This document shows positions 2,972 to 63,592 of a stretch of 64,000 nucleotides of DNA, one piece after another (positions within the stretch are counted from its first letter, which is position 1; every line of letters starts with the position of its first letter). The notes beneath the pieces are model-generated. The model searched no databases, was not told the origin of the DNA, and saw only the letters and a list, made by a program, of their open reading frames with translations. Source of the DNA: a virus; IMG/VR virus record IMGVR_UViG_3300044475_000063, positions 32,001-96,000 of that record, one strand, 5' to 3'. Position numbers and translations under genes: made by a program.

Positions 2972-3160
2972 ATGATTAGTATCGGTCAGATGGTGCGTGT
3001 TCTGAATTCGGATAATGTGTGTCGTCTTGAATCATGGGAGCGCGATGCTATCCATATGATTCATTCTAAGTCTGTAAATGGGCTGCGGCAGAATCTGCTA
3101 GACCTCCGCGAGTGCCAACTTATCATCACTATTTTTAACAGGGTATATCAAAATGCGTAA
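2972..3160 (+). CDS. conserved hypothetical protein
   Basis: Homolog of 53398-53586. ggagg RBS. Confidence 0.55.
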   Translation: MISIGQMVRVLNSDNVCRLESWERDAIHMIHSKSVNGLRQNLLDLRECQLIITIFNRVYQNA

Positions 3161-3251: not shown

Positions 3252-3453
3252 GATCGGACGACCATCGCACCTTGAAGCAGTAGCTTCTGCGCTTCCTGGC
3301 ACTCGCAACCAGATCGCCAAGCGAGTAGGAATCAGCGCAGCTTGTGTAGGCCGCTTGCTGCGCGTTCTGGAAGCGAATCGGGCGGTTTATGTGGTTACGC
3401 ATGCCGTTCCGAAATGCGGTCCTAAAATGCCTGTATTCGCTTTGAGGCGCTAA
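3244..3453 (+). CDS. small helix-turn-helix DNA-binding protein
   Basis: MAKIGRPSHLEAV...RNQIAKRVGISAACVGRLLRVL. Homolog at 53875-54096. Confidence 0.6.
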   Translation: MAKIGRPSHLEAVASALPGTRNQIAKRVGISAACVGRLLRVLEANRAVYVVTHAVPKCGPKMPVFALRR

Positions 3454-3905: not shown

Positions 3906-4046
3906 AGACGAAAAAGAAAATGACTCTGTAGCAGCCCCAAGGTTTTTTGGTGGATCGCAAAATGGAGTGTGGACGTAACAGAGTCCGTTCACACTTCAGG
4001 TTGGCAGACCCGATCCACCAAAGCATCTTGGGGCTTTTTTTCGTCT
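3906..4046 (+). ncRNA. candidate ~150-nt rod-like sRNA ending in an intrinsic terminator
   Basis: Nested pairings: 3906-3915/4037-4046, 3934-3941/4027-4034, 3946-3957/4011-4022, 3964-3975/3986-3997. U7 run at 4035-4041. No ORF. Confidence 0.5.
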
Positions 4047-4271
4047 GCACTGTCTGAATTGACTAGCCTATCGTCGGGAACGAAAGCAACAGGGCGATAG
4101 CGTGAATACTGGAACTGTGGCAAAGCAAGGGAAGCACCAGAATGAGGCGTCGAAGATAGCACCTCACTTGCGCAAGGCTGTCGGGTCAGCGATTCCTCAA
4201 TGGATACGTTGTGATGGGCCTTAGCTAAGTCTAGGTCCGCTCAAACCTCTTGGATAATACGAAAGATAAGA

Positions 4272-4970
4272 ATGAACCTGATGCTTGTAAATACTAAAGA
4301 ACAGACCATGACAAGCAAGGAAATGGCTGAGCTTACAGAAAAGCGCCATGACAGCGTCAAACGGACCATTGAAAACCTTGCTTCTACTGGCGTGATCGGC
4401 CAACCACAAATTGTGGATGGAGAAAAAGCAGGCAACAACGTTGTTGAAAAGCTATATTTGTTTGGGAAGCGTGACAGCTATGTGATCGTTGCCCAGCTTT
4501 CGCCGCTGTTCACTGCCCGACTTGTAGACCGCTGGCAAGAGTTGGAATCCCGAGAATCCTCGGTAGATGGCTTTGAGATTCCCAAGACTTTTGCAGAGGC
4601 ATTGCGGCTTGCTGCTGACCAGCAAGAGACGATTGCAAAACAGGCCTTGCAGATTGAGACGAATGCGCCAAAGGTTGCATTTGCCGAAGCAATTCGCGCC
4701 ACTGAGGGCGTTTGCAGCGTTGAGAAGATCGCAAAAACGCTTGGCTGGGGGCGTAACAAGTTTTTCGACAGGCTGCGCACTGATGGCATTCTGATGGCTA
4801 ACAACCTGCCATATCAGAAGTACATTGACCGCGAGTATTTCACCGTCATTGAGCAGGAACCATACACGGATAGTAAAGGAGTCGTGCACCCTACGTTCAC
4901 GACTCGTGTAACGGGCGCTGGACAGGTGTTCCTTGCCAAAAAGTATGCAAACATCATGGGTGTAGTATGA
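4272..4970 (+). CDS. antirepressor-type regulator (Rha-like N-domain plus KilAC/ANT-like C-domain)
   Basis: N-terminus TSKEMAELTEKRHDSVKRTIENL. C-terminus IAKTLGWGRNKFFDRLRTDGIL...YFTV. Both recognised by eye. Confidence 0.7.
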   Translation: MNLMLVNTKEQTMTSKEMAELTEKRHDSVKRTIENLASTGVIGQPQIVDGEKAGNNVVEKLYLFGKRDSYVIVAQLSPLFTARLVDRWQELESRESSVDGFEIPKTFAEALRLAADQQETIAKQALQIETNAPKVAFAEAIRATEGVCSVEKIAKTLGWGRNKFFDRLRTDGILMANNLPYQKYIDREYFTVIEQEPYTDSKGVVHPTFTTRVTGAGQVFLAKKYANIMGVV

Positions 4971-7890: not shown

Positions 7891-8400
7891 CTATATTTCT
7901 ATATCAGCCCAGCTTTTCCCAAGTTTTATCATGCTTACGGTCGAATGGTGAACATTGAAGAGTTTTCCTAGCTCTTTGTTCGACATTCTAATCATAGAGG
8001 CTAGCTTTATATATCTAGCCTCTTCTTTGGTTAAGATTGATCTAGGATTCAACTCGCCAAAAATAGGTCGGCATGGCGATCTGCCTTTTGAAACCATATC
8101 ATTTGAATTGTCTTGTGCAGTACCAAGAAAAAGATGATTTGGGTTGGTACAGATAGGGTTATCACATTTATGGCATACCATAAAATCACCCGGCTCTATA
8201 CCAAAATGCAAAGCATAAGAAATTCTATGCGCGAATACAGATTGTCCGCGCTTGCCAACATGGGCAAGCCTCGCGTATCCCTTTTTGTCTACGAAACCAT
8301 TCCAAGACCAGCAATTGTCTTGCTTGACAACCTTTGACAGGTATCTCTGTTCTATTTTTGACAGAGGATCATTGATAAGAGGTAAAATAAGAATAGCCAT
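7891..8400 (-). CDS. HNH homing-type endonuclease with C-terminal HTH
   Basis: CWxW...GYAR...HR..Y...CHKCDNP.C.NP.HL..GT...N motif. GGAG RBS before the ATG at 8400 (ORF-track start 8448). AT-rich. Absent from copy B. Confidence 0.8.
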   Translation of the reverse strand: MAILILPLINDPLSKIEQRYLSKVVKQDNCWSWNGFVDKKGYARLAHVGKRGQSVFAHRISYALHFGIEPGDFMVCHKCDNPICTNPNHLFLGTAQDNSNDMVSKGRSPCRPIFGELNPRSILTKEEARYIKLASMIRMSNKELGKLFNVHHSTVSMIKLGKSWADIEI

Positions 8401-8493
8401 GAAGACTCCATGAAAGTCATTTGTGGTTAAAAGCCAACACGTGTGCAACCACTGTTGGCTTTGTCATTCTAACTCAGATACAATGAATTTGTC

Positions 8494-8569
8494 GCGGGGA
8501 TAGCTCAGTTGGTAGAGTCTCTGATTTCCAATCAGATTGTCGTCGGTTCAAGCCCGATTCCCCGCTCCA
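8494..8569 (+). tRNA. tRNA-Gly (anticodon UCC)
   Basis: 76 nt hand-folded cloverleaf: 7-bp acceptor, GCTC/GAGT D-stem, TCTGA/TCAGA anticodon stem, loop TTTCCAA, T-loop TTCAAGC, encoded CCA. Confidence 0.85.
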
Positions 8570-8574
8570 AGAAT

Positions 8575-8708
8575 TAGCGAAGGCAGATAGCCATGAACAA
8601 AAGCGCGTGCGCAAGTAGTCATGCTGGCATACTGGAAGTAGCTAAAGCAAAGCCGCTAATGCGTTATTAGGAATTGCGCCACACAGTTCGGAAACTGCGG
8701 CATGTGGC
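8575..8708 (+). ncRNA. conserved structured RNA module M1 (unknown class)
   Basis: No ORF. Nucleotide-level conservation with 58540-58672. Helix GCCACA/TGTGGC encloses hairpin CAGTT-CGGA-AACTG. Confidence 0.4.
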
Positions 8709-8718
8709 AAGAATAGTT

Positions 8719-9001
8719 GGTCCGATACCGCAGGGGCGCTCGGGACAATAAACGCCCCAGCATAAGCGCCGCCCTCCTTTCCCCAGCTATCGCTAGTGGG
8801 CGCAACAAGTAATTAGGCGTGATTATGCAGAGCCAAGTACAAGGGCGCAGAGCGTGGAAGCCGCTAGTTGTTTGTCTCGCAAGAGACGCCACATAAAACC
8901 AGCCCGTGACGCCCTATTGCAGGGCATATGAGCGAACGAAGTAAGGGCGGCAGTCTTTGCATCTTAGTAGGCCAAGGAAACGTTGGTTGGTTTTATGTGG
9001 T
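8719..9001 (+). ncRNA. conserved structured RNA module M2 (unknown class)
   Basis: 5' two-thirds conserved with 59160-59330. 3' closing helix GCCACATAAAACCA/TGGTTTTATGTGGT corresponds to a different but still complementary helix in copy B. Confidence 0.45.
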
Positions 9002-9086
9002 GCAATGCTCGGGGATTTTTTTGTCTATTGCCTATCTAGAGTAGAATGTCAAGACAGAATTCACCATCACAGATTCAAGGCAAAAC

Positions 9087-9509: not shown

Positions 9510-10926
9510 CGACCCAGAGGTAATCAAGGCAGTAACTCGCGCACTATGCCTTGAGGATCACCTATTCTTTACTCGCTACTTCTTTAAGCTGCGCGAGGGG
9601 ATTAAATTCCGCGTCAACTGGCACCATAAGCGCATGGCTGAGGCTATCCAGCGCGTGATTGATGGGCATTGCAAGCGGCTAATCATCAATGTGCCTCCTG
9701 GCTCGTCTAAGACGGAAATGGCGGTTATTAACCTGATTGCGCGTGGGCTTGCGATTAATCCTCGTGCGCGCTTCCTGCACCTATCGTACTCTGCTGACCT
9801 TGCCGAACTGAATAGCGCCAAGGCAAAGGAGCTAATCACGTCCAGCGAGTATCAAGAGTTATTCACGATCCCGATTAAGACCGACTCCAAGGCGCGGGGC
9901 CGCTGGAACGTGGTTGATGAAAAAGGCGTGTCTATCGGCGGATGCTATGCGACCTCGACGCTTGGTCAGGTAACTGGCTTTCGTGCCGGTCACATGGCTG
10001 ATGGGTTTCAGGGCGCGATCATCATCGATGATCCATTAAAGCCTGTAGACAGCCTATCAAAGACCAAGCGCGATGCAGTCAACAATGCCTTTATCAATAC
10101 CGTGCAGAGCCGCAAGGCATCGCCTGATACTCCTATCATCGTCATCATGCAACGCCTCGCAGACGAGGATTTAACGGGCTTCCTGTTGAATGGCGGCGAC
10201 GGCAAAGAGTGGGAGCATGTTTGCATCCCAGCTATTGACGACGATTCCGGCAAGAGCTATTGGCCTGAGAAAGAGCCTATCGAATCGCTCTTGCAACTTA
10301 AGGAAAAGGGTAACTTCACCTTTGAGGGGCAGTACCAGCAGCGACCATATGTGCTAGGTGGTGAAATTATCAGGGGCGAATGGTTCGGGCGCTATAGCGA
10401 ACTGCCGCCGCAGAAATGGTGTGTGCAGCGCGCCGTATTCGCTGATACAGCCATGAAAACAGGCGAGCAGAACGACTACACGGTATTTATTGATGCCGCG
10501 CTCTATACCGATGGCAAGGTACGTATCCTTAACCTATGGCGCAAGAAAGTGAATGCCGTGGGCCTTCTTCAATTAGCCAAAGAGGTTTGGGCCTCGACAG
10601 AAGGGCTAGCTAGCGCCATGTACATTGAAGACAAGGCATCTGGCACCGGCCTAATCCAGCAGCTACAGGAAAACGACGTATTTATCCCGGTTATCCCAAT
10701 CGAGCGCACCAAAGACAAGCTAACCCGCGTCATGGAAGTGCAGCCAAGGATTCAGGCTGGCGGCGTTTTGCTGCCTACCTATGCGCCTTGGGTAACTGAG
10801 TTCATTAGCGAATGTGAGGCATTCACTGCAAACGATAGCCATAAACACGATGACCAAGTAGACCCGCTTGTAGATGCTGTAAATACGTTCATGGCTAACA
10901 GTTTCAACCTATCAGCCTTGGTTTAG
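9496..10926 (+). CDS. terL: terminase large subunit
   Basis: Walker-A-like VPPGSSKTE, IIIDDP Walker B, C-terminal nuclease region. Start at MVASDD overlapping the terS end. Unrelated to the copy B TerL. Confidence 0.85.
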   Translation: MVASDDPEVIKAVTRALCLEDHLFFTRYFFKLREGIKFRVNWHHKRMAEAIQRVIDGHCKRLIINVPPGSSKTEMAVINLIARGLAINPRARFLHLSYSADLAELNSAKAKELITSSEYQELFTIPIKTDSKARGRWNVVDEKGVSIGGCYATSTLGQVTGFRAGHMADGFQGAIIIDDPLKPVDSLSKTKRDAVNNAFINTVQSRKASPDTPIIVIMQRLADEDLTGFLLNGGDGKEWEHVCIPAIDDDSGKSYWPEKEPIESLLQLKEKGNFTFEGQYQQRPYVLGGEIIRGEWFGRYSELPPQKWCVQRAVFADTAMKTGEQNDYTVFIDAALYTDGKVRILNLWRKKVNAVGLLQLAKEVWASTEGLASAMYIEDKASGTGLIQQLQENDVFIPVIPIERTKDKLTRVMEVQPRIQAGGVLLPTYAPWVTEFISECEAFTANDSHKHDDQVDPLVDAVNTFMANSFNLSALV

Positions 10927-10945
10927 ATAAGAGAACATAAATAAA

Positions 10946-10963
10946 AACCCGCCGAAGCGGGTT
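10946..10963 (-). terminator. terminator of the reverse-strand cassette
   Basis: AACCCGC-CGAA-GCGGGTT hairpin. The T-run (TTTTTATTT) follows only on the minus strand. Confidence 0.65.
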
Positions 10964-10970
10964 GATTATG

Positions 10971-11345
10971 TTAGCCGTCGCCGGAGCCGTAGCCGTAGCC
11001 GGAGCCGTAGCCGTAGCCGGAGCCGGAGCCGTAGCCGTAGCCGGAGCCGGAGCCGTAGCTGTCGCCGGAGCCGTCGCCGTAGCCGGAGCCGTAGCCGGAG
11101 CCGTCGCCGGAGCCGGAGCCGTAGCCGTAGCCGGAGCCGGAGCCGTAGCTGTCGCCGGAGCCGTCGCCGTAGCCGGAGCCGTAGCCGGAGCCGTCGCCGG
11201 AGCCGTAGCCGGAGCCGTAGCCGGAGCCGGAGCCGTAGCTGTCGCCGGAGCCGTCGCCGGAGCCGTCGCCGGAGCCGTCGCCGGAGCCGTCGCCGGAGCC
11301 GTAGCCGTAGCCGGAGCCGTCAGTAAAAGTTTTATTGGTAGCCAT
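10971..11345 (-). CDS. (Gly-X)n repeat protein, X = Ser/Tyr/Asp (124 aa)
   Basis: MATNKTFTD then 115 aa with Gly at nearly every second position (57 of 115; the few exceptions are DSY motifs). AAGGA RBS 8 nt before the ATG. Overlaps the upstream gene end. Terminator downstream. Confidence 0.55.
   Translation of the reverse strand: MATNKTFTDGSGYGYGSGDGSGDGSGDGSGDGSGDSYGSGSGYGSGYGSGDGSGYGSGYGDGSGDSYGSGSGYGYGSGSGDGSGYGSGYGDGSGDSYGSGSGYGYGSGSGYGYGSGYGYGSGDG
10974..11318. repeat. hexanucleotide tandem array (GCC-GNN)n, 345 nt, with ~90-nt higher-order repeats
   Basis: Direct reading: gccgga/gccgta/gccgtc/gctgtc units without interruption. Open on both strands. Confidence 0.95.
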
Positions 11346-11706
11346 CAATGCTGTCCTTTGCAGCTTGGGTAGCTGGGATCAGTTCGCAGATGCCAGTCAG
11401 ATAAATTTCTGGGTTGACCACATCGACTTTCCCGCCGTCTTTTTTAAGGCCGTGTTGAGCAACGCCCGATAGCGCAACGCCGTCTTTAGCTTTCCACGAC
11501 CACAGGCGGCGCGAGTTTTTCAGAACTGCGGTATCGCCGTCAACGCTTACGACTTCGCCAGCATGCACACCAGCGGCATAGCAGCGTGCGATTACGTACT
11601 TGCCAACGAATGGATGAGGTAATACGGCTTGATATACTTGAGCCGACGCGCCAAACAAGGCGGCAAGTTCTTTAGCTTGGCCGATGGTGAGTTCGTTAAT
11701 GTTCAA
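11332..11706 (-). CDS. hypothetical protein (124 aa), partner of the repeat gene
   Basis: Reverse-strand ORF with aggagaag RBS. The RRLWSW motif is reminiscent of a phage DUF family. Absent from copy B. Confidence 0.6.
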   Translation of the reverse strand: MNINELTIGQAKELAALFGASAQVYQAVLPHPFVGKYVIARCYAAGVHAGEVVSVDGDTAVLKNSRRLWSWKAKDGVALSGVAQHGLKKDGGKVDVVNPEIYLTGICELIPATQAAKDSIDGYQ

Positions 11707-30808: not shown

Positions 30809-32220
30809 GTTTGACCTCAACAGGGCTTGAGCGACCACGCCTAGCCGAACTAAAGGCCGATCTGGATCAAAGCATTACTGATGTGCTTGGTCCGGTAAAT
30901 GTCGCGCCAGATGCAGTTCTAGGACAGATTGACGGCATCAATGCCGCTGCCTTAGATGATGTATGGGAAGCAGTTCAGGATAATTATGACAGTATGTATC
31001 CATCTAGCGCGGAAGGTGTTAGTTTGGACCGTGCTGTATCGTTCTTGGGCCTTGTGCGAATCCCTGCTGCACCTGTTGTAGTTACAGCAGCTATCTATGG
31101 CACAGAAGGGGCAGTAGTTCCTGTAAATGCGCTGGCACATGCTGACGTACAATATTTCAATACTTCTCAAGTCACGATTACTCAAGCAAGCGTGATTGAT
31201 ACTATTGTTGGTGTTGCAGCCGCATTTGATGCGGTTACTTACACGGTGACACTTAATGGTACGCCATACTCTTATTTGTCAGGCGCTGGCGCTACAAAAA
31301 CTTCTATTGCACTTGGCTTAAAAACTGCAATTGGCGCTGCATATATAGTTTCTGTAACTGACGATAAGCTGCGCATCAGCGCATTGGATGGCGAAACGCC
31401 ATTTCCTATTCTCATAACTGATAATCTGACGCTTGATAGCATCGGCTCTCCTGCTATCTTCGTTTCTGTAGTTAGTGGCGCTCGTGGTTTGCCTGTTGGT
31501 GCATTATCGAATGTAGATACTCCTGTATTCGGCTGGACTGGTATATATAACTTGCTTCCAGGCGCTGGCAGTCGAGATGTTGAGTCAGATATTGATTTGC
31601 GCCTACGTCATGCTACGGCATCTCGTGCTACTGGTTCAGCAACCGTTAAGGCAATTCGTGCGCGCTTGCTAGCAGAGGTTCCAGGGGTTACGGCTGTCTC
31701 TATCTATGAGAATCGTACCAGCAGTGTAGTTTCTTCGCGTCCACCTCATTCATTTGAAGCAGTTGTACAAGGTGGAGTAGACCAGCTTGTAGGAAACAAC
31801 ATTTGGGAAAATAAACCAGCAGGTATAGAAACTTATGGCAACGTGACAGTTAATGTCACTGATGATAATGGCGATCTGCAAGCTACTAAATTTTCGCGCC
31901 CAACCTCTAAATATCTATGGGTACGCGTGACTGTTACCGCACTTTATCCAGAAGAGGATTTGCCGTCAAATACTGAGCAAGCAATCATAGATGCTGTGTT
32001 AGCAACATCAAGCGCGCTCACTGTTGGAGAGGACGTTATTACTCAGCGCTTTATCGGACCGATTTATGCCGCAACTACGGGCATCGGAATGATTACTGTT
32101 GAAACTGCTTTGACTAATTTACCCGGCGATACTCCAACCTACACAACTGCAAACAAAGCAATCTCGTTTGCAGAATTAGCTATTGCTGCTCAAAGTCGAA
32201 TCACGGTACTTGGCCTATGA
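30805..32220 (+). CDS. baseplate J-like wedge protein
   Basis: 471 aa, by size and position. Confidence 0.6.
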   Translation: MSLTSTGLERPRLAELKADLDQSITDVLGPVNVAPDAVLGQIDGINAAALDDVWEAVQDNYDSMYPSSAEGVSLDRAVSFLGLVRIPAAPVVVTAAIYGTEGAVVPVNALAHADVQYFNTSQVTITQASVIDTIVGVAAAFDAVTYTVTLNGTPYSYLSGAGATKTSIALGLKTAIGAAYIVSVTDDKLRISALDGETPFPILITDNLTLDSIGSPAIFVSVVSGARGLPVGALSNVDTPVFGWTGIYNLLPGAGSRDVESDIDLRLRHATASRATGSATVKAIRARLLAEVPGVTAVSIYENRTSSVVSSRPPHSFEAVVQGGVDQLVGNNIWENKPAGIETYGNVTVNVTDDNGDLQATKFSRPTSKYLWVRVTVTALYPEEDLPSNTEQAIIDAVLATSSALTVGEDVITQRFIGPIYAATTGIGMITVETALTNLPGDTPTYTTANKAISFAELAIAAQSRITVLGL

Positions 32221-47104: not shown

Positions 47105-47685
47105 TCTCCGTGATGGGTAGTGTAAGGAGGGGATTTTCACCCCATTCCTTTTTAAGCGTGGTCGCTGTATGCAATAACTCTGGCGGGACGTTGTTTATCC
47201 TGAGTCTACTCAGAACCCGTCTTTGCATCTTCGATTCTGACCATATCGACCATGGGCATGTGCGCGTTCATGCTAGCGTGTGGTGGCCGGTGCTGATATC
47301 CGGCATTGGGCGTCTTATCCACGTTTCCCCATCCTTACTACCCAGCGTTTGGAACCCTGGTTGACAAGTAAGCGCATCAGCTTGCGCATTCACCACATCG
47401 AAACGGGCTAGGGCTTGATACCTAGCTAATCGTATGTCGGTCATACGACTACCAACCAGTTGCGGAACCCCTTTTTAACGAGTCGGTTAAGCCTCTTTTG
47501 TCGCCTTCAGGTTGGTTAAGCACCCTAAGCTCCGTTTCCGCCGACCTTGCTTAGCACGTCCTTCCGTGCTGCCGTTTCGATGTGGTTCCTAGCACTTACG
47601 CGGCTAGGTTACGATACTAGGAATTAATCCCTTGTCCTAGTAGCTTGCTAGATTCTTTCGCCGTTCTTGGCTCTAGCGGGCCAAA
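47105..47685 (-). ncRNA. large structured RNA candidate R (unknown class), paralog of 59461-59974
   Basis: ~580 nt with no credible ORF. 14-bp long-range helix 47572-47585/47393-47406. Blocks at 47555-47573, 47404-47424 and 47280-47296 are identical to blocks in the plus-strand copy. Confidence 0.5.
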
Positions 47686-58234: not shown

Positions 58235-58376
58235 AATTAAGTGTTGTATTTTTGCACTAGCGTTGACTTTGAATAATGGTTAAGGCATCATTACTACATC
58301 GAGCACCACTTTCCAGATAGGACTGGGTTCAAGCAACTTCCGCGCTGGCGAAGTGAAAGGCCAGCAAAAGATCAAA

Positions 58377-58452
58377 GCGCCGTTGGCAGACAGGATGATG
58401 CACCGGAATTCTAGTCCGACGTAAGGGAGTTCGAATCTCTCACGGCGCGCCA
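58377..58452 (+). tRNA. tRNA-Arg (anticodon UCU)
   Basis: 76 nt hand fold: perfect 7-bp acceptor, loop ATTCTAG (U33, UCU, A37), T-loop TTCGAAT, encoded CCA. C27-A43 and G13-A22 mismatches. Confidence 0.8.
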
Positions 58453-58460
58453 GTTTCAAA

Positions 58461-58534
58461 GCGGGTATAGCTGATTGGCACAGCAGAAGCCTTCCAAGCT
58501 TACGACTCGGGTTCGATTCCCGATATCCGCTCCA
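58461..58534 (+). tRNA. tRNA-Gly (anticodon UCC)
   Basis: 74 nt hand fold: acceptor GCGGGTA/TATCCGC, D-stem GCTG/CAGC, loop CTTCCAA, T-arm TCGGG-TTCGATT-CCCGA, CCA. Confidence 0.8.
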
Positions 58535-58539
58535 AGAAT

Positions 58540-58672
58540 TAGCGAAGGCAGATAGCCATGAATGAAAGCGCATGCGCAAGTAGTCATGCTGGCATACTGG
58601 AAGTAGCTAAAGCAAAGCCGCTGATGCGTTATGAGGAATTGCGCCACACAGTTCAAAACTGCGGCATGTGGT
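58540..58672 (+). ncRNA. structured RNA module M1 (copy B)
   Basis: Conserved with 8575-8708. The hairpin loop changes (CGGA to CAAA) while the stems are kept. Confidence 0.4.
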
Positions 58673-58680
58673 AAGATTAT

Positions 58681-58909
58681 GGGCCTGTGGCTGAGAGGAA
58701 AAGCACTCCTAATAATGGAAGGAGACAGGTAAAACTGATTTTCAAGTCGAAAGTTTTGCATGGTACACGGTTTGCAGAAGCACCTATAGCGGCCTGATTC
58801 AGGTGGCGGTTAAACAGCAAGGGAAGCGCGTTTCCAAGCTATGCAAAAGCTAGTAGTAATGCACTAGTACATGAAAATTACATGGGTTCAATTCCCATCA
58901 GGTCCACCA
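58681..58909 (+). ncRNA. tRNA-like RNA with ~150-nt insertion at the variable-arm position
   Basis: Acceptor GGGCCTG/CAGGTCC + A + CCA, D-arm GCT-GAGAGGAAA-AGC, stem CTCCT/AGGAG with 9-nt loop AATAATGGA, T-arm ATGGG-TTCAATT-CCCAT. 229 nt in total. Confidence 0.45.
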
Positions 58910-59150
58910 GTTGCAAGAATAGTAGTTGTAAGAGCCAATGCGAGACCCTGCGCGATCAACCTGCCCGGAGCAGGTTCCGTAAGGAAGGGGTGGCAGACCG
59001 GAAAGACGGTCACTGAATAGCAGTAGTGACGAGAGGACGTGGCAACCGCACGTTTGGCGAAGTTTGCTAATTCGGGACAGGCAACTGAAACATTGGAGTC
59101 ATGACCAATGGAACCAAGAGCTAAAACCTGATTACGTGGTTGACTAATTT
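58910..59150 (+). ncRNA. structured RNA module M3 (copy B only)
   Basis: No ORF. Local hairpins CCTGC-CCGGA-GCAGG, TTCC-GTAA-GGAA, GACCG-GAAAGA-CGGTC, GTCACT-N10-AGTGAC, CGTG-N7-CACG. Confidence 0.35.
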
Positions 59151-59159
59151 TGAATAGTT

Positions 59160-59428
59160 GGGCCGATACCGCAGGGGCGCTCGGGCCAATAAACGCCCCA
59201 GCATAAGCGCCGTCCTCCTTTCCCCAGCTATCGCTAGTGGGCGCAACAAGTAATTAGGCGTGATTATGCAGAGCCAAGTTAAGGGCGCATAGCGTGGAAG
59301 CCGCTAGTAGTTTTGTCTCGCAAGAGACGCCACAAGAAAGCCGATTTGTGAGATACGTGGTATATCAGCGCCCTCATAAGATGAAGTCCCTTGGTTCGAT
59401 TCCGAGGACAAGTCGGCCTCCTTGTGGC
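59160..59428 (+). ncRNA. structured RNA module M2 (copy B) with a tRNA-sized minihelix at its 3' end
   Basis: 5' part conserved with 8719-8890. Helix 59329-59344/59413-59428 encloses 59340-59417, which has a 10-bp acceptor-like stem stacked on T-arm CCTTGG-TTCGATT-CCGAGG. Confidence 0.45.
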
Positions 59429-59460
59429 CCCTACTATAAAACTGTAGGAATATAGATGGT

Positions 59461-59974
59461 GCATAATTCAATTGACGAATTGAATGTATGCCGAATGGTT
59501 CACGAAACGAGCCATTACATATCATCGGCAGCACGGAAGGACGTGGGTAAGCGCTGCAAATAGTCGGCAGAGAGATTGCGGCAATCCTAGGTGATTTGCT
59601 CTCATCATGCCAAGTTAGGTATCAAGCCCTAGCCCGATGATCTGTAATAAAGATTGGATGATGCCGGTCGTTACACGCCTGACTCTCGTTATAGAGTCAC
59701 TACACGCATGCTGATTGATAGGGATGGATACGTAGAACTGGACGCAGGGGCTATCCATAGAGTCTAGGCCTTGACCTAGAGCGCAAACTCCCCTAACTAC
59801 GATATTAGTCAGCAGTCGTGTGGTGCAATGCGGAGGCTGATCCGCGAAGCGTTCTATGAGTCCGATTGATTACCGGGATACTCGCAGGTTGGCTAGGCTT
59901 CGCGGGCCTAAACTTTAGCGCAGAATAATGCCAACAAAGCCAGAGTTCAGCACTGGCCACCACTTCAGTTTCAT
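59461..59974 (+). ncRNA. large structured RNA candidate P (unknown class), paralog of 47105-47685
   Basis: Helix 59521-59528/59634-59641. Blocks at 59527-59545, 59616-59636 and 59947-59963 are identical to blocks in the minus-strand copy. No ORF. Confidence 0.5.
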
Positions 59975-60052
59975 GCCAAGAGTAGCTCAACGGTTAGAGC
60001 GACGGATTAATAACCCGGATTATGCTGGTTCGATTCCAGCCTCGCGGCACCA
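59975..60052 (+). pseudogene. degenerate tRNA-like element ending in CCA
   Basis: D-arm GCTC-AACGGTTA-GAGC and T-arm GCTGG-TTCGATT-CCAGC are good. The acceptor has 2 mismatches and the anticodon stem has only 3 bp (loop TTAATAA). Confidence 0.4.
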
Positions 60053-60074
60053 GTTCTTTCCCGCAGCACCTTTC

Positions 60075-60102
60075 GCCCTGAATCCTATCAGGGCGTTTTT
60101 TT
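60075..60102 (+). terminator. rho-independent terminator closing the RNA island
   Basis: GCCCTGA-ATCCTA-TCAGGGC followed by GTTTTTTT. Confidence 0.8.
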
Positions 60103-60176
60103 GTCTAAAACGCCGCATTCAATTGCCGCATTAAGCCGCAAAAGCCGCACCATGCAAAATGCGCTAATATAGCGGC

Positions 60177-60755
60177 ATGGGACGAAAATCAGCACTCACG
60201 CCCGAGCAATGGGCAACCGTACAGCACCGCCATATCGTAGGCGGTGAATCTATTCGCATGCTTGCAAAAGAGTTCGGAGTCAACGAATCATCCATGCGCC
60301 GCAAGATCGGGCCTAAAGTGGTTGAGGCTGGCGAGACAGAGGACTTGCGAGAGCTAGCAGGGCGAAAAGCAAGAATCGACAGCGAGGCAAAGCGTATCAG
60401 CGCAGAGATTGAAGCGTTGCCGATTGCTAAGCAAATGATTGTTTCCGATCTGGCGCGTAAGCTGGGTGCGATCACAATGCACCTAAGCTCGTCAGGCGAA
60501 TATATGTCCTCATTGGTTCATCGCGTTACTGGTATTGCTTGCGGGCTATCCGAAAAGATTGATGACGCTGACCCAATGAAAAGCATTGACGTGCTTAAGC
60601 AAATTTCAAGCTTGGTTCACCTTGCTAACGAATCCTCGCAAATTCCTATGAACTTGATTAAGGCGAATAAGGAAACGATTGACGCTATGAGCGAAGCAGC
60701 AGAAGGCAATAGCTCGCGCCCAACAGCGCCGGTCTATCAGATCGTCCACGAATGA
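60177..60755 (+). CDS. terS: terminase small subunit (HTH type), unrelated to copy A TerS
   Basis: N-terminal HTH (ESIRMLAKEFGVNESSMRRKI), coiled-coil middle. Overlaps the TerL start. Confidence 0.65.
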   Translation: MGRKSALTPEQWATVQHRHIVGGESIRMLAKEFGVNESSMRRKIGPKVVEAGETEDLRELAGRKARIDSEAKRISAEIEALPIAKQMIVSDLARKLGAITMHLSSSGEYMSSLVHRVTGIACGLSEKIDDADPMKSIDVLKQISSLVHLANESSQIPMNLIKANKETIDAMSEAAEGNSSRPTAPVYQIVHE

Positions 60756-62185
60756 GCGCTATTGAGATTTTCCCGGCGTATGAGGAATATCTGCAGCCGG
60801 CTCGCTTCAAGGTTGCATACGGCGGGCGCGGATCGGCTAAAACGCGCACATTCGTAACCATTCTTCTAAGCAACGTCCTGCATTTTGGCTGGCGAGTTGT
60901 TGCTTTTAGGGAGTTAATGGAAAGCATCGAGGACTCAGTTTATCAAGAAGTGGTTGCAGAGATTACGCGCCGCGAGTGGGATAAATGGTTTGACGTGCTT
61001 AAGACAGAGATTCGCTGTCCTGTCAGCGGTGGTGTATTCAAGTTCTCAGGCATTAAATCGAGCGCTAAGCGCCTCAACAGCCAAAAGCTTAAGGGTTTCT
61101 CAGACTTTGATGCCGCATGGCTGGAGGAGGCCAATCCTGTGTCTGTCGAGTCATGGAATGCGCTCATTCCTACCATGCGTAAGCCGGGTTCAGAAATTTT
61201 CGTATCCTTTAACCCGGAAAACCCACTTGAGGAAACCTATAAGCGGTTTGTGACTGAGCGCAAATACCCTGATTACTTGGGTGGAAAGCGCTATTGCATA
61301 GTCAAAAAGCTGAATTACGATGCAAACCCGCGATTCCCTCAAGAGTTGCGCGACGACATGGAGTTAATGAAGGCGACGGACTTTGAAATGTACCGTCACG
61401 TCTATTTGGGTGAGCCTGTGAGCAATTCTGACTTGTCGATCATCAAGCCGATATGGATTGAAGCGGCAATGGATGCGCACCTGCACATTGCGGACTTCCC
61501 TATGGGAGGCGGCAAGATCGGCGGATTTGACGTATCTGGAGGCGTTGAGGGGGATATTGCAACACCCAAGGCAAACGATCCAAACGCCTTTGCATGGCGT
61601 CATGGCTGCATCCTGCAATCGCTTGAGGAATGGCATGACGAAGACCCTAATCGCGCCGCTGCGACGTGTTATGAGCATGCATATCGCTCTCAAGTGGACA
61701 CGCTCAATATTGACGATATTGGCGTTGGTGCCTCTGTTCCTGGCGAACTAAGGCGCTTGCAGGGCGAAGCCTATGCAAAGAGCGTTAAGATCAAGCAGAT
61801 CAATTTCCACGGCTGGACAGCATCCGAAGGACCGCAAGACCCTGATGCAGAGTACATGCCGGGTAAAACGAACTTTGATATGTTCGCCAACCTCAAGGCG
61901 CAGGGATGGGGAACGCTGGCAGATCGCTTTAGGGCAACTTGGCAAGCGCGTAACGGTCTGCCATACGACAAAGACAAGCTAATCAGCCTGCCTAGTGGTT
62001 TGTCTCTTGTTGACAAGCTTAAGGCAGAACTAGCCCAGCCGCGACGCGAGATTATCAATGGACGATTCAAGGTAGAAGGCAAGAAAAAGCTCAAAGAGCG
62101 CGGCATCCCATCGCACAACTTGGCCGATGCGGTTGTTATGGCATTTGCGCCGGGTGATAGCTTTGATCTATCAGCACTGATATGA
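60752..62185 (+). CDS. terL: terminase large subunit (PBSX/XtmB-like), unrelated to copy A TerL
   Basis: Walker A YGGRGSAKT near the N-terminus, DAAWLEEA Walker B. 477 aa directly upstream of the portal. Confidence 0.8.
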   Translation: MSAIEIFPAYEEYLQPARFKVAYGGRGSAKTRTFVTILLSNVLHFGWRVVAFRELMESIEDSVYQEVVAEITRREWDKWFDVLKTEIRCPVSGGVFKFSGIKSSAKRLNSQKLKGFSDFDAAWLEEANPVSVESWNALIPTMRKPGSEIFVSFNPENPLEETYKRFVTERKYPDYLGGKRYCIVKKLNYDANPRFPQELRDDMELMKATDFEMYRHVYLGEPVSNSDLSIIKPIWIEAAMDAHLHIADFPMGGGKIGGFDVSGGVEGDIATPKANDPNAFAWRHGCILQSLEEWHDEDPNRAAATCYEHAYRSQVDTLNIDDIGVGASVPGELRRLQGEAYAKSVKIKQINFHGWTASEGPQDPDAEYMPGKTNFDMFANLKAQGWGTLADRFRATWQARNGLPYDKDKLISLPSGLSLVDKLKAELAQPRREIINGRFKVEGKKKLKERGIPSHNLADAVVMAFAPGDSFDLSALI

Positions 62186-62233
62186 TTAATTAAATAGGAT
62201 ATATAATTGATTTATTGAATATCGGGATTAATC

Positions 62234-63592
62234 ATGGCACGAACTAAAGGCGCACTCGGCAAAAAGACATTGGAGCGAATGCAGCAAGGCGGAGGTGTAA
62301 CTGTAACAGACTCATATGCTGAGGTCTTTACGGGCGCAGGGACAAATCGGGACCGTAGCAGCTACACGCGCATTGCCCGCACCGCCATGCTGCAACAGAT
62401 GGAATGCTCTCTGCTGTACTTGGGCGACGGCTTTGCGCGCAAGATTGTGGACGTGCCAGCAGAGGAAATGACGCGCTCCGGGCTTGAGCTTGAGGATTTG
62501 GAGGACGAGGAACTAGAGCAGTTCGTCATGGCGCGGCTTGATGATCTGGACGCCATGCGGCACTTTAATGATGCTGTGGCGTGGTCTAGGCTGCATGGCG
62601 GCGCGGTGATGATCTTCGGCCTGAATGATGGAGGCACGCTTGACGTTCCGCTTAATCCAGATGGAATCAAGAGCGTTGAATTCCTCCGAGTTTATGACCG
62701 CTGGCAAGCGACTATCCAGACCCGCGTGACCGATCCGAGCAGCCCGGACTATGGAAAGCCTGATATTTGGCTCATTTCTCCGCTCGATGGTGCGCAACCG
62801 TACAAAGTGCATAACTCGCGCCTTTGGATGTTTGACGGCGACCGCATTCCCGATTTTGACCGCAATGCTAATCAAGGCTGGGGTGCATCGGCGCTACAAG
62901 CTTGCCAAGATCAGCTTAAGCGCCTCGGAATGGGCCATCAATGGACGCTGGCTATCCTTGAGCGTGCGCAACAGGCTGTGCATAAGATTCCGAATCTCGC
63001 GCAGACATTGCAAGCGCCAGGAGGTGAAGCACTGGTACGCAAGCGCGTTGACGTCGTTGACATGGTGCGTGGCATCCTGAATACCATCGTTGTAGACGAA
63101 AAGGAAGCATACGAAGTCACCACGGCCACGCTAACGGGCTATACGGACGTGCTAGACCGATTTGCGGAGGCACTGGCGGCTGTATCGGGCATTCCAGTGT
63201 CCATCCTCATGGGGCGCTCGCAGGGAGGCTTAAGCAATACCGAAAAAGGCACCATGGATGCTTGGTACGCTCGTATCGAATCGATGTGGAATGACATTCT
63301 GCGCAAGCCGCAAGATCGCCTGATTCAGTACATCATGATTGCGCAACAAGGCGAAGCGCCGGACTATAAGCTGTGCATGAAGCCTTTGAGCGTTCTCAGT
63401 GAGCAGGAAGAAGCCGATGTGGAACTGAAAGAGGCGCAAACTTGCAAAGCCCGCGCAGAGGCTGAGAGCATCCGAATTGCTGATGGCGTACTCGATCCGC
63501 TGGAAGTGCGCGAAACGCTCAAGGATGATTATCCTCTGTTCTCCACGCCACCAGAGCCGCCAGAAGCACCAGAGGTAACTAATGGCATCTAA
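62234..63592 (+). CDS. portal protein (DUF1073/HI1409-like)
   Basis: Core nearly identical to 11842-13197. The termini differ. Confidence 0.85.
   Translation: MARTKGALGKKTLERMQQGGGVTVTDSYAEVFTGAGTNRDRSSYTRIARTAMLQQMECSLLYLGDGFARKIVDVPAEEMTRSGLELEDLEDEELEQFVMARLDDLDAMRHFNDAVAWSRLHGGAVMIFGLNDGGTLDVPLNPDGIKSVEFLRVYDRWQATIQTRVTDPSSPDYGKPDIWLISPLDGAQPYKVHNSRLWMFDGDRIPDFDRNANQGWGASALQACQDQLKRLGMGHQWTLAILERAQQAVHKIPNLAQTLQAPGGEALVRKRVDVVDMVRGILNTIVVDEKEAYEVTTATLTGYTDVLDRFAEALAAVSGIPVSILMGRSQGGLSNTEKGTMDAWYARIESMWNDILRKPQDRLIQYIMIAQQGEAPDYKLCMKPLSVLSEQEEADVELKEAQTCKARAEAESIRIADGVLDPLEVRETLKDDYPLFSTPPEPPEAPEVTNGI

Follow-up and report, generated by a model that had tools for sequence, protein, structure and literature searches.

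Two widespread structured RNA families, absent from Rfam, in a non-coding island upstream of phage terminase genes

Lambdoid phages have pR'-tR' just before their late genes, and Shiga toxin (Stx) phages carry transfer RNAs (tRNAs) at this place. Phage tRNA arrays are currently viewed as sustaining translation when hosts destroy or deplete tRNAs. GOLLD and ROOL, non-coding phage RNAs of unknown function, travel with tRNA clusters and sometimes have tRNAs embedded in them. Here we describe a non-coding island at positions 58235-60176 of a 64-kb stretch of viral DNA (IMG/VR record IMGVR_UViG_3300044475_000063, positions 32,001 to 96,000; the whole stretch that was analysed is called the window below). 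Like the tRNA clusters of lambdoid (Stx) phages and the tRNA arrays of large phages, the island has tRNAs on one strand in a non-coding stretch before the late genes. Unlike them, most of its 1.9 kb is not tRNA and is made up of a 229-nt tRNA-shaped RNA, an element of a family that we call P, and lineage-specific modules. The 229-nt RNA and P are members of two widespread structured RNA families absent from Rfam 15. Full-text literature searches found no description of either family, which does not prove that none exists. As in the case of GOLLD and ROOL, these are phage-borne RNAs beside tRNAs, but they are much smaller, have tRNA-like architectures and show no sequence or model match to those two: the Rfam search of the window and island returned neither.

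The window consists of two related temperate phage genomes of ~50 kb in tandem, phage A and phage B, whose homologous blocks lie ~50 kb apart with 75-100% identity. Because these tandem genomes are related, copy A (8449-9086) and copy B (58235-60176) of the island are one site in two phages, not two copies within one genome, which corrects the preliminary description of this DNA. In both phages the site is located 3' of a run of small early genes whose last member is a conserved 140-aa gene, and directly 3' of the site are the genes of the small terminase, the large terminase (PF04466) and the portal protein. We regard it as rather probable that the island is a unit of RNA-gene cargo in the leader of the phage late operon of packaging and structural genes, with the roles for the 229-nt RNA and P that are proposed below. 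A sigma-70-like promoter would drive a single plus-strand transcript through the mosaic of RNA genes to a terminator just before the terminase genes, and host tRNA-processing enzymes (RNase P, RNase E/Z) would cut this precursor at the tRNA-shaped elements and at A/U-rich spacers. The theme of the cargo would be translation and RNA repair, with cassettes swapped between related phages. What we propose on transcription and processing, on charging and protein partners, and on the role of P is deduced from the sequence.

The 229-nt tRNA-shaped RNA ("TLR", 58681-58909, plus strand) lies exactly where a tRNA-like RNA of this length had been described. Its acceptor stem GGGCCUG/CAGGUCC (7 bp) has G3:U70, A73 and an encoded ACCA end. 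It is followed by a class-II-like D arm (D stem GCU...AGC), a 5-bp anticodon-like stem with a 9-nt loop AAUAAUGGA, a conserved domain of ~150 nt at the variable-arm position, and a T arm AUGGG-UUCAAUU-CCCAU. In the window copy the ~150-nt domain includes a hairpin with the loop GUAAAA, two long-range helices, P2 and P3, an invariant core and a hairpin with the loop AGUAAUGC. Of the features of a canonical tRNA, the 7-bp acceptor stem, the D arm, the T arm with its T-loop and the 3' CCA are present; a 7-nt loop with U33, a length of 70-95 nt and a call by tRNA finders are not. Indeed, neither ARAGORN (tRNA and tmRNA modes) nor the Rfam tRNA model calls the 229-nt RNA.

The family was seeded from a comparison with cultured phages. 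When GenBank phages were searched with the island by blastn, tRNAs matched, and the one other match was a relative of the 229-nt RNA that lies in an unannotated gap beside the tRNA genes of Ralstonia phage RSP15. Two motifs shared with this relative were turned into a two-block pattern, which matched three viral contigs, 37 metagenomic contigs (nearly all of them, ~35, true members) and 12 genomic loci, nine of which are true members. The relatives thus recovered number ~45. A 14-mer scan for the same RNA found only chance matches. The genomic members in Variovorax and Achromobacter reside within arrays of 27 and 32 tRNAs. In four Deinococcus species the RNA is a stand-alone gene of ~208 nt with its own terminator, and further genomic members belong to Trueperaceae, an uncultured bacterium and Fibrobacteria. 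A tRNA lies within 1.5 kb in 36 of 48 loci and at least three tRNAs do so in 25, every such tRNA being on the same strand; most relatives of the 229-nt RNA reside in tRNA arrays of large phages and are always co-oriented with the tRNAs.

Family alignments analyzed with RNAalifold and helix covariation tests show a common layout. Every pair of the acceptor stem covaries, as do the D stem, the hairpins and the T arm. The anticodon-like loop is 8-13 nt long with the consensus AAAACGGA and has no U33, while its stem has many compensatory variants. In the ~150-nt domain a hairpin CCG-GUAAMA-CGG is followed by the long-range helix P2, the motif CGCAAG and then the long-range helix P3. P3 closes the invariant core (GGUUGCAGAAGCACCUAUAGCGGCC, a hairpin, GGUGGC..AACAAGCAAGGGAAGCGCGUUUCCAAG), after which come the hairpin with the loop AGUAAUGC, the T arm and NCCA. 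The invariant motifs of the core read GCACCUAUAGCGGCC...GCAAGGGAAGC. P2 and P3 were tested by anchored helix counts, an alignment-free duplex-energy test being too noisy with G+C-rich sequences: P3 forms at least eight of its nine pairs in 48% of native strand pairings and in 4% of mismatched ones, and P2 forms all seven of its pairs in 47% and 6%, respectively.

In tRNA-Ala identity, a G3:U70 pair in the acceptor helix is sufficient for recognition by alanyl-tRNA synthetase (AlaRS). Among 28 unique members of the 229-nt family, 16 have G.U at position 3:70, while other acceptor positions have at most one G.U. All 16 members with G3:U70 carry A73, and G73 occurs only alongside G3:C70. Given this sufficiency rule, the G3:U70, A73 and CCA of the window copy make charging by AlaRS expected, and the RNA should be alanylated. 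Codon reading is unlikely because of the oversized anticodon-like loop. The 229-nt RNA most likely folds into the tRNA L-shape.

The same identity set (G3:U70, A73, CCA) is found in transfer-messenger RNA (tmRNA, SsrA), which also has a similar T arm, a length well beyond that of tRNA, and carriage by phages. A related phage, L193, even holds a genuine two-piece tmRNA at the same site. An alternative is therefore a compact tmRNA, with the 229-nt RNA freeing stalled ribosomes by trans-translation. With the Rfam tmRNA model the 3' part of the RNA shows a local match (25.6 bits, E = 7.6e-8), similarly weak matches occur among its relatives (three were searched at E <= 10), and the window copy includes an in-frame run GCA GAA GCA CCU AUA GCG GCC UGA, i.e., AEAPIAA followed by a stop. 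However, this match falls short of the gathering score (47), and no tmRNA is called by ARAGORN. Reading the family by eye, we found that most members lack the stop after ...GCGGCC and that neither a frame nor a stop is conserved after the invariant GCACCUAUAGCGGCC; a tag peptide was therefore rejected. Moreover, the RNA has a real D stem and a local anticodon-like hairpin in place of the long P2 helix and the series of pseudoknots of tmRNA. We disfavour trans-translation as very improbable.

Another comparison is offered by the bacterial Y RNA YrlA, a tRNA mimic with D- and T-like arms (Chen et al. 2014, PMC4201824). YrlA was found by the criterion of adjacency to Ro60 (within ~4 kb) on the same strand, and its homologs have been reported in phages (PMC4201824). 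In YrlA the 5' and 3' ends pair in a Ro-binding stem, a loop closes the acceptor-like stem, and there is no free CCA (PMC4201824; bioRxiv 10.1101/312249). In three of our loci (L182, L184 and L187) an RNA of the 229-nt type is directly followed, on the same strand, by genes of Ro60 (TROVE + vWA) and RtcB. These loci (L182 4270-7998; L184, Trueperaceae-like; L187 3950-7645, Fibrobacteria) come from three bacterial genomes of two phyla. A protein partner probably docks on the ~150-nt domain, and the Ro60/RtcB RNA-repair machinery is the best lead to this partner.

It is conceivable, if clearly not the likeliest case, that the 229-nt RNA itself belongs to the bacterial Y RNAs and, as YrlA does, binds Ro60 (Rsr) and links it to a nuclease or to the RNA-repair machinery. 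The position just upstream of Ro60 and RtcB and the tRNA mimicry in common with YrlA speak for this, and the window sequence GUCGAAAG (58746-58753) agrees with the YrlA motif GNCGAAN0-1G. Across the family, however, the consensus there is CGCAAG and not GNCGAA. The topologies also differ: YrlA is circularly permuted, whereas the 229-nt RNA keeps the tRNA order, with an open acceptor stem, G3:U70, A73 and an encoded CCA, and has its additional domain of ~150 nt where a tRNA has the variable arm. The majority of members reside in tRNA arrays, and their fetched flanks have no Ro60; none was found either in the 8-kb stretches around the Deinococcus, Variovorax and Achromobacter members. Since YrlA is permuted and has no free CCA, and the ends of the 229-nt RNA form an acceptor stem with an encoded CCA, we rejected its assignment to YrlA as such.

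The second family is represented in the window by P(+) (59515-59647, plus strand), a member of 133 nt. The "~0.5 kb element P" of the preliminary description proved to be composite, with this family member and ~420 nt without a homolog. Two short P blocks common to the window and L193 lie on either side of a helix whose pairs covary between these phages. With an 18-mer of the first of these blocks, CGGCAGCACGGAAGGACG, 41 IMG/VR contigs were retrieved, and the family was characterized by covariation. P(+) has a closing helix P1, UUACAUAUCAU/AUGAUCUGUAA plus CGG/CCG, then CA and the hairpin GCACG-GAAGGA-CGUGG, followed by a variable arm and the hairpin UAGG-UAUCAAGC-CCUA. Across the family the size is 109-230 nt and the variable arm 54-173 nt. 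P1 of 5-14 bp is represented by at least 12 unrelated but fully complementary sequences, extended by CGG/CCG and then CA. The hairpin GCACG-GAAGGA-CGUGC is invariant, and the 3' hairpin H2, GCCGG-UAUCAAGC-CCGGC, has a covarying stem. The junction resembles a tRNA cloverleaf, with a 2-nt linker, a D-like arm and a T-like arm abutting P1. Several members have a terminator-like hairpin, a ribosome-binding site and an open reading frame (ORF) downstream. In four P-family loci (L208, L201, L212 and L225) the variable arm encloses a complete tRNA or a T arm. Rfam gave no family match to P, either for the window copy and one compact member at E <= 10 or for 11 loci at the gathering score, and the P core has no exact match in GenBank cultured-phage records.

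A second copy, P(-) (47392-47586, minus strand), has a 12-bp P1 (ACCACAUCGAAA/UUUCGAUGUGGU). It is located in a non-coding gap of ~590 nt in the leftward early operon, between a 111-aa ORF and the genes of an Erf-like annealing protein and an exonuclease, which are downstream of it; a Cro-like helix-turn-helix gene lies on the other strand. P(+) lies 430 nt 5' of the terminator at 60074, and the early promoter is 11 kb away from it. The two divergent operons thus have one copy each, and P would be a cis-acting structured RNA that most likely acts on its own transcript, either in processive antitermination of the put/nut style or as a signal of processing or stability.

The arrangement is similar to that of HK022 putL/putR and lambda nut, since structured, non-coding RNAs occur in the leftward early and the rightward operons, upstream of terminators. 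The put RNA is ~70 nt long, forms two stem-loops in a V shape and binds the zinc-binding domain of the RNA polymerase beta' subunit (PMC9378689). It has no closing helix, whereas P has a long covarying one together with two invariant hairpins and a variable arm; by structure, therefore, P fails as a put-type RNA of ~70 nt with two stem-loops. Because of this difference, and because the late leader of phage A has no P, antitermination is one of two hypotheses for P, the other being RNA processing.

Processing could also be intrinsic to P, and that P is a self-cleaving ribozyme or an RNase-recognition module which cuts the operon transcript, rather than an antiterminator, is in our estimate a minority possibility worth keeping in view. 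The 3' hairpin GCCGG-UAUCAAGC-CCGGC of P seems to resemble the conserved hairpins of twister (GCCGG-UCCCAAGC-CCGG) and twister-sister ribozymes, P members adjoin or enclose tRNAs as small ribozymes do in phage tRNA clusters, and the P junction mimics a tRNA cloverleaf. On the other hand, Rfam gave no ribozyme or tRNA match at E <= 10 for the window copy and the compact member. P1 is a continuous helix without the internal loop in which cleavage sites of the twister type lie, and P was rejected as a twister or twister-sister ribozyme. A broader proposal, which takes the 229-nt RNAs as a new class of alanine-accepting, tRNA-shaped RNAs that recruit Ro60/RtcB or the ribosome and takes P as a new class of cis-acting phage RNA (antiterminator or ribozyme), is tentative.

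All RNA elements of the island are on the plus strand between a promoter-like site and a strong terminator. The former is a sigma-70-like promoter (58263-58291: TTGACT, a 17-nt spacer and CATCAT) found by a consensus scan as the putative start of the island transcript; together with ~25 nt upstream it is conserved in L193. The intrinsic terminator (60074-60102, previously given as 60075-60102) has an 8-bp stem (60074-60095) with six G-C pairs, followed by T7, and ends 75 nt 5' of the small terminase gene at 60177. It is kept in L193 at ~4541-4577, as read from the sequence, within a blastn match at 4521-4577. Between them, ARAGORN and Rfam agree on tRNA-Arg(UCU) (58377-58452; Rfam 42.9 bits), tRNA-Gly(UCC) (58461-58534; 61.9 bits; homologous to 8494-8569 in copy A) and a tRNA with the anticodon AAU and an encoded CCA end (59975-60052; 47.2 bits). 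The acceptor stem of the last one has A.C and A.G mismatches, and its function is uncertain. Its flanks, CAAGAGTA ... CGGCACCA, are conserved in L193 (3900-4530), where they surround ~600 nt that include the tmRNA; it looks as if the tRNA(AAU) and tmRNA segments were cassettes, one replacing the other between fixed ends. What had been taken for a "minihelix" embedded in module M2 is a separate decayed tRNA (59343-59414; Rfam 16.6 bits) with the 7-bp acceptor stem GAUUUGU/ACAAGUC. It keeps the T arm CCUUGG-UUCGAUU-CCGAGG and CAU at the loop position, while its anticodon stem is broken; nhmmer matches its 3' half to real tRNAs.

The remaining parts of the island are the modules M1 (58535-58680), non-coding and lineage-specific, with a match in copy A, M3 (58910-59151), found only in phage B and unexplained, and M2 (59152-59342), a lineage-specific structured RNA with an H-type pseudoknot (59160-59199) and a GNRA-capped hairpin GUCUC-GCAA-GAGAC. 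The phage A island (8494-9025, plus strand) has tRNA-Gly (8494-8569), M1 and M2; its tail of 108 nt, unique to this copy, folds into a long hairpin and is followed by a T-run. The small terminase after it differs from that of phage B. The content of copy A is thus as previously described, with 94% identity to copy B in the M1 region (8562-8715 vs 58527-58679) and 96% in M2 (8711-8893 vs 59152-59334). The HNH endonuclease gene 7891-8448 (minus strand) is found in phage A only, directly upstream of tRNA-Gly, and this enzyme is a possible driver of cassette exchange.

In L193 the island occurs in a third form, 2.1 kb without ORFs that are bounded by the same 140-aa gene and by a terminase resembling that of phage A. 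It begins with tRNA-Leu(UAG), tRNA-Leu(UAA) and tRNA-Tyr, followed by the 3' 71 nt of M1 (3009-3079, 93% identity), ~200 nt of unique sequence, and M2 (3277-3424, 89% identity). After M2 come conserved parts of P, the two-piece tmRNA and the same terminator as in the window. The 5' part of M1 is replaced, the tRNAs are swapped relative to phage B, and the 229-nt RNA and M3 are absent. The tmRNA (3958-4380) is a genuine two-piece (permuted) betaproteobacterial one with the tag ANDAQFKVAAYA: it scores 148 bits with Rfam beta_tmRNA (gathering score 84) and 134 bits with tmRNA_permuted. Its intervening segment has 127 nt vs 25 in the Rfam model. As a two-piece betaproteobacterial tmRNA, the window island itself reaches only 14.8 bits (E = 3.3) with beta_tmRNA/tmRNA_permuted. 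Phages A and B and L193 thus share the 3' part of M1, M2 and the flanks and differ in tRNAs, the 229-nt RNA, M3, P and tmRNA, which is the basis for proposing an exchange of cassettes. In another relative, L192, protein genes take the place of the RNA genes at the site, including an RNA ligase (PF09414, 7098-8090). From the contents of L193 and L192 we conclude that the site is a hot spot where cassettes related to translation RNAs are swapped. The proposed cargo theme has its basis in the tRNAs of all three island versions, the tmRNA of L193, the RNA ligase of L192 and the 229-nt RNA of phage B.

The 16 related viral contigs found by synteny via the large terminase have no island and almost no tRNAs. 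The 140-aa upstream gene has no relative in GTDB genomes, its protein has no sequence match in Pfam, PHROG or PDB, and among its metagenomic homologs an island is found only in L193. Exact-word scans of IMG/VR, as well as blastn and nhmmer searches of the loci fetched for comparison, detected no M1 or M2 outside phages A, B and L193. In the latter searches, which also covered M3, P and the leader, the only matches were 3' halves of tRNAs matching the decayed tRNA. M3 has no similarity in any fetched locus, and its match to tmRNA_permuted (14.8 bits, E = 3.3) was rejected as too weak to be credible.

The preliminary description thus stood in part. Its non-coding island with modular gain and loss is borne out, the latter by the partly kept M1, M2 and P core, the swapped tRNAs and the added two-piece tmRNA of L193; the single 0.5-kb P and the repeated joints are not. 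The AAGAATAG-like joints had been proposed as repeated signals of processing or recombination. The motif AAGAWTWR derived from them occurs 19 times in the window vs 21.6 expected. Five of its ten plus-strand matches are in the two islands, a weak local enrichment because two of the five are the A and B copies of one site. GAATAGT is enriched window-wide (13 vs 4.75 expected), mostly outside the islands. The joints are short A/U-rich spacers that might serve as sites of RNase E-type cleavage.

Could the region nevertheless hide small protein-coding genes? ORFs of 61-101 aa are present on both strands. However, the longest run antisense across the tRNA genes, and none of the six longest in 58235-60176, of which the largest has 101 aa, has a Pfam match above the family cut-offs. 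Differences among A, B and L193 preserve helices and show no codon pattern, and in the corresponding 2.1 kb of L193 gene callers place no more than two ORFs, both tiny and on the minus strand. We consider hidden genes extremely improbable, in agreement with the previous observation that 58235-60176 has no plausible coding sequence.

A more serious alternative is that the island is mostly a graveyard, a decayed phage tRNA array in which only the intact tRNAs function. The tRNA at 59343-59414 is clearly decayed, and tRNA(AAU), besides its two acceptor-stem mismatches, has an anticodon unusual in bacteria. M3 and the ~420 nt around P have no homolog and unremarkable single-sequence folding z-scores (-0.96 and -2.08). 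The folds of M1+M2 (0.07) and the 229-nt RNA (-1.07) are likewise unremarkable, although such single-sequence z-scores are uninformative here. Selection on the RNAs is visible in comparisons instead. M2 is more similar between A and B (96%) than the flanking coding genes are (77-93%), and its differences from L193 are compensatory: the pseudoknot stem GGGGCG/CGCCCC of A and B becomes GGUUC/GAACC by three compensatory pairs, and the tetraloop of the hairpin GUCUC/GAGAC changes from GCAA to GGAA with GNRA kept. The 229-nt and P families have dozens of members with strong covariation. Free drift without helix-preserving substitutions had been named as the outcome that would speak against functional RNAs; such substitutions are present in M2, the long helix of P and all helices of the 229-nt RNA. 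We therefore regard the graveyard alternative as improbable for the island as a whole.

Several observations do weigh against a functional RNA-gene cargo unit with the roles proposed here. About 40% of the island (M3 and the segments 59418-59514 and 59648-59974) has neither a homolog nor a significant folding signal, and this portion could therefore consist of decayed genes or junk. Similarly, copy A has a tail without a homolog and with a fold signal that is not convincing. The promoter is a 9/12 consensus match, and four such sites were found vs 2.6 expected by chance. About 40% of the members of the 229-nt family have no G3:U70. Genes of Ro60 or RtcB are absent from the 64-kb window and from the flanks of the phage loci, and Ro60 adjoins only three of nine cellular loci. 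Since members were collected through exact matches to them, the two core motifs of the 229-nt RNA and the 18-mer of P are in part invariant by design. Each of the 41 viral contigs yielded only one copy of P with the exact core. Finally, copy A has the same layout of a terminator before the terminase genes but no P, which weakens the antitermination hypothesis for P(+).

If the proposed roles are right, the 229-nt RNA adds to phage tRNA arrays a conserved RNA of tRNA shape, one expected to accept an amino acid but unlikely to decode. This would be a third kind of chargeable translation-related RNA beside tRNA and tmRNA, a class that phage tRNA arrays have spread and that has also become fixed in the chromosomes of Deinococcus. 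Its travel with tRNA arrays and its adjacency to Ro60-RtcB in some bacteria would link phage counter-defence with Y-RNA biology. The P family may give phage operons a form of control by RNA beyond the enterobacterial systems put and nut. Both families are compact, with clear consensus structures and many natural variants. A single hot spot that swaps tRNAs, tmRNA, a tRNA mimic and an RNA ligase points to selection for intact translation RNAs.

Known RNAs were searched for with Rfam 15, using the gathering score for the whole window and E <= 10 for the island. In the island, nothing but tRNAs and weak matches to tmRNA emerged at E <= 10. The early region of phage A has the Betaproteobacteria-1 RNA at 4066-4186 (plus strand), with 57.2 bits vs the gathering score of 49.4, and phage B has no equivalent match. 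This RNA and the betaproteobacterial tmRNA of the relative L193 point to a betaproteobacterial host of the window phages.

Two further observations concern the window sequence itself. The packaging-gene region of phage A includes, at 10906-11373, a dense direct repeat with a periodicity of 12/18 nt and 23 overlapping copies of a 174-nt register; phage B has no counterpart. In addition, two independent public assemblies, L141 (equal to window 59250-62371) and L142 (59250-61612), match the window at 100% identity. Each of them breaks off at 59250, within the M2 segment common to A and B, which suggests that both phages were present in those samples as well.

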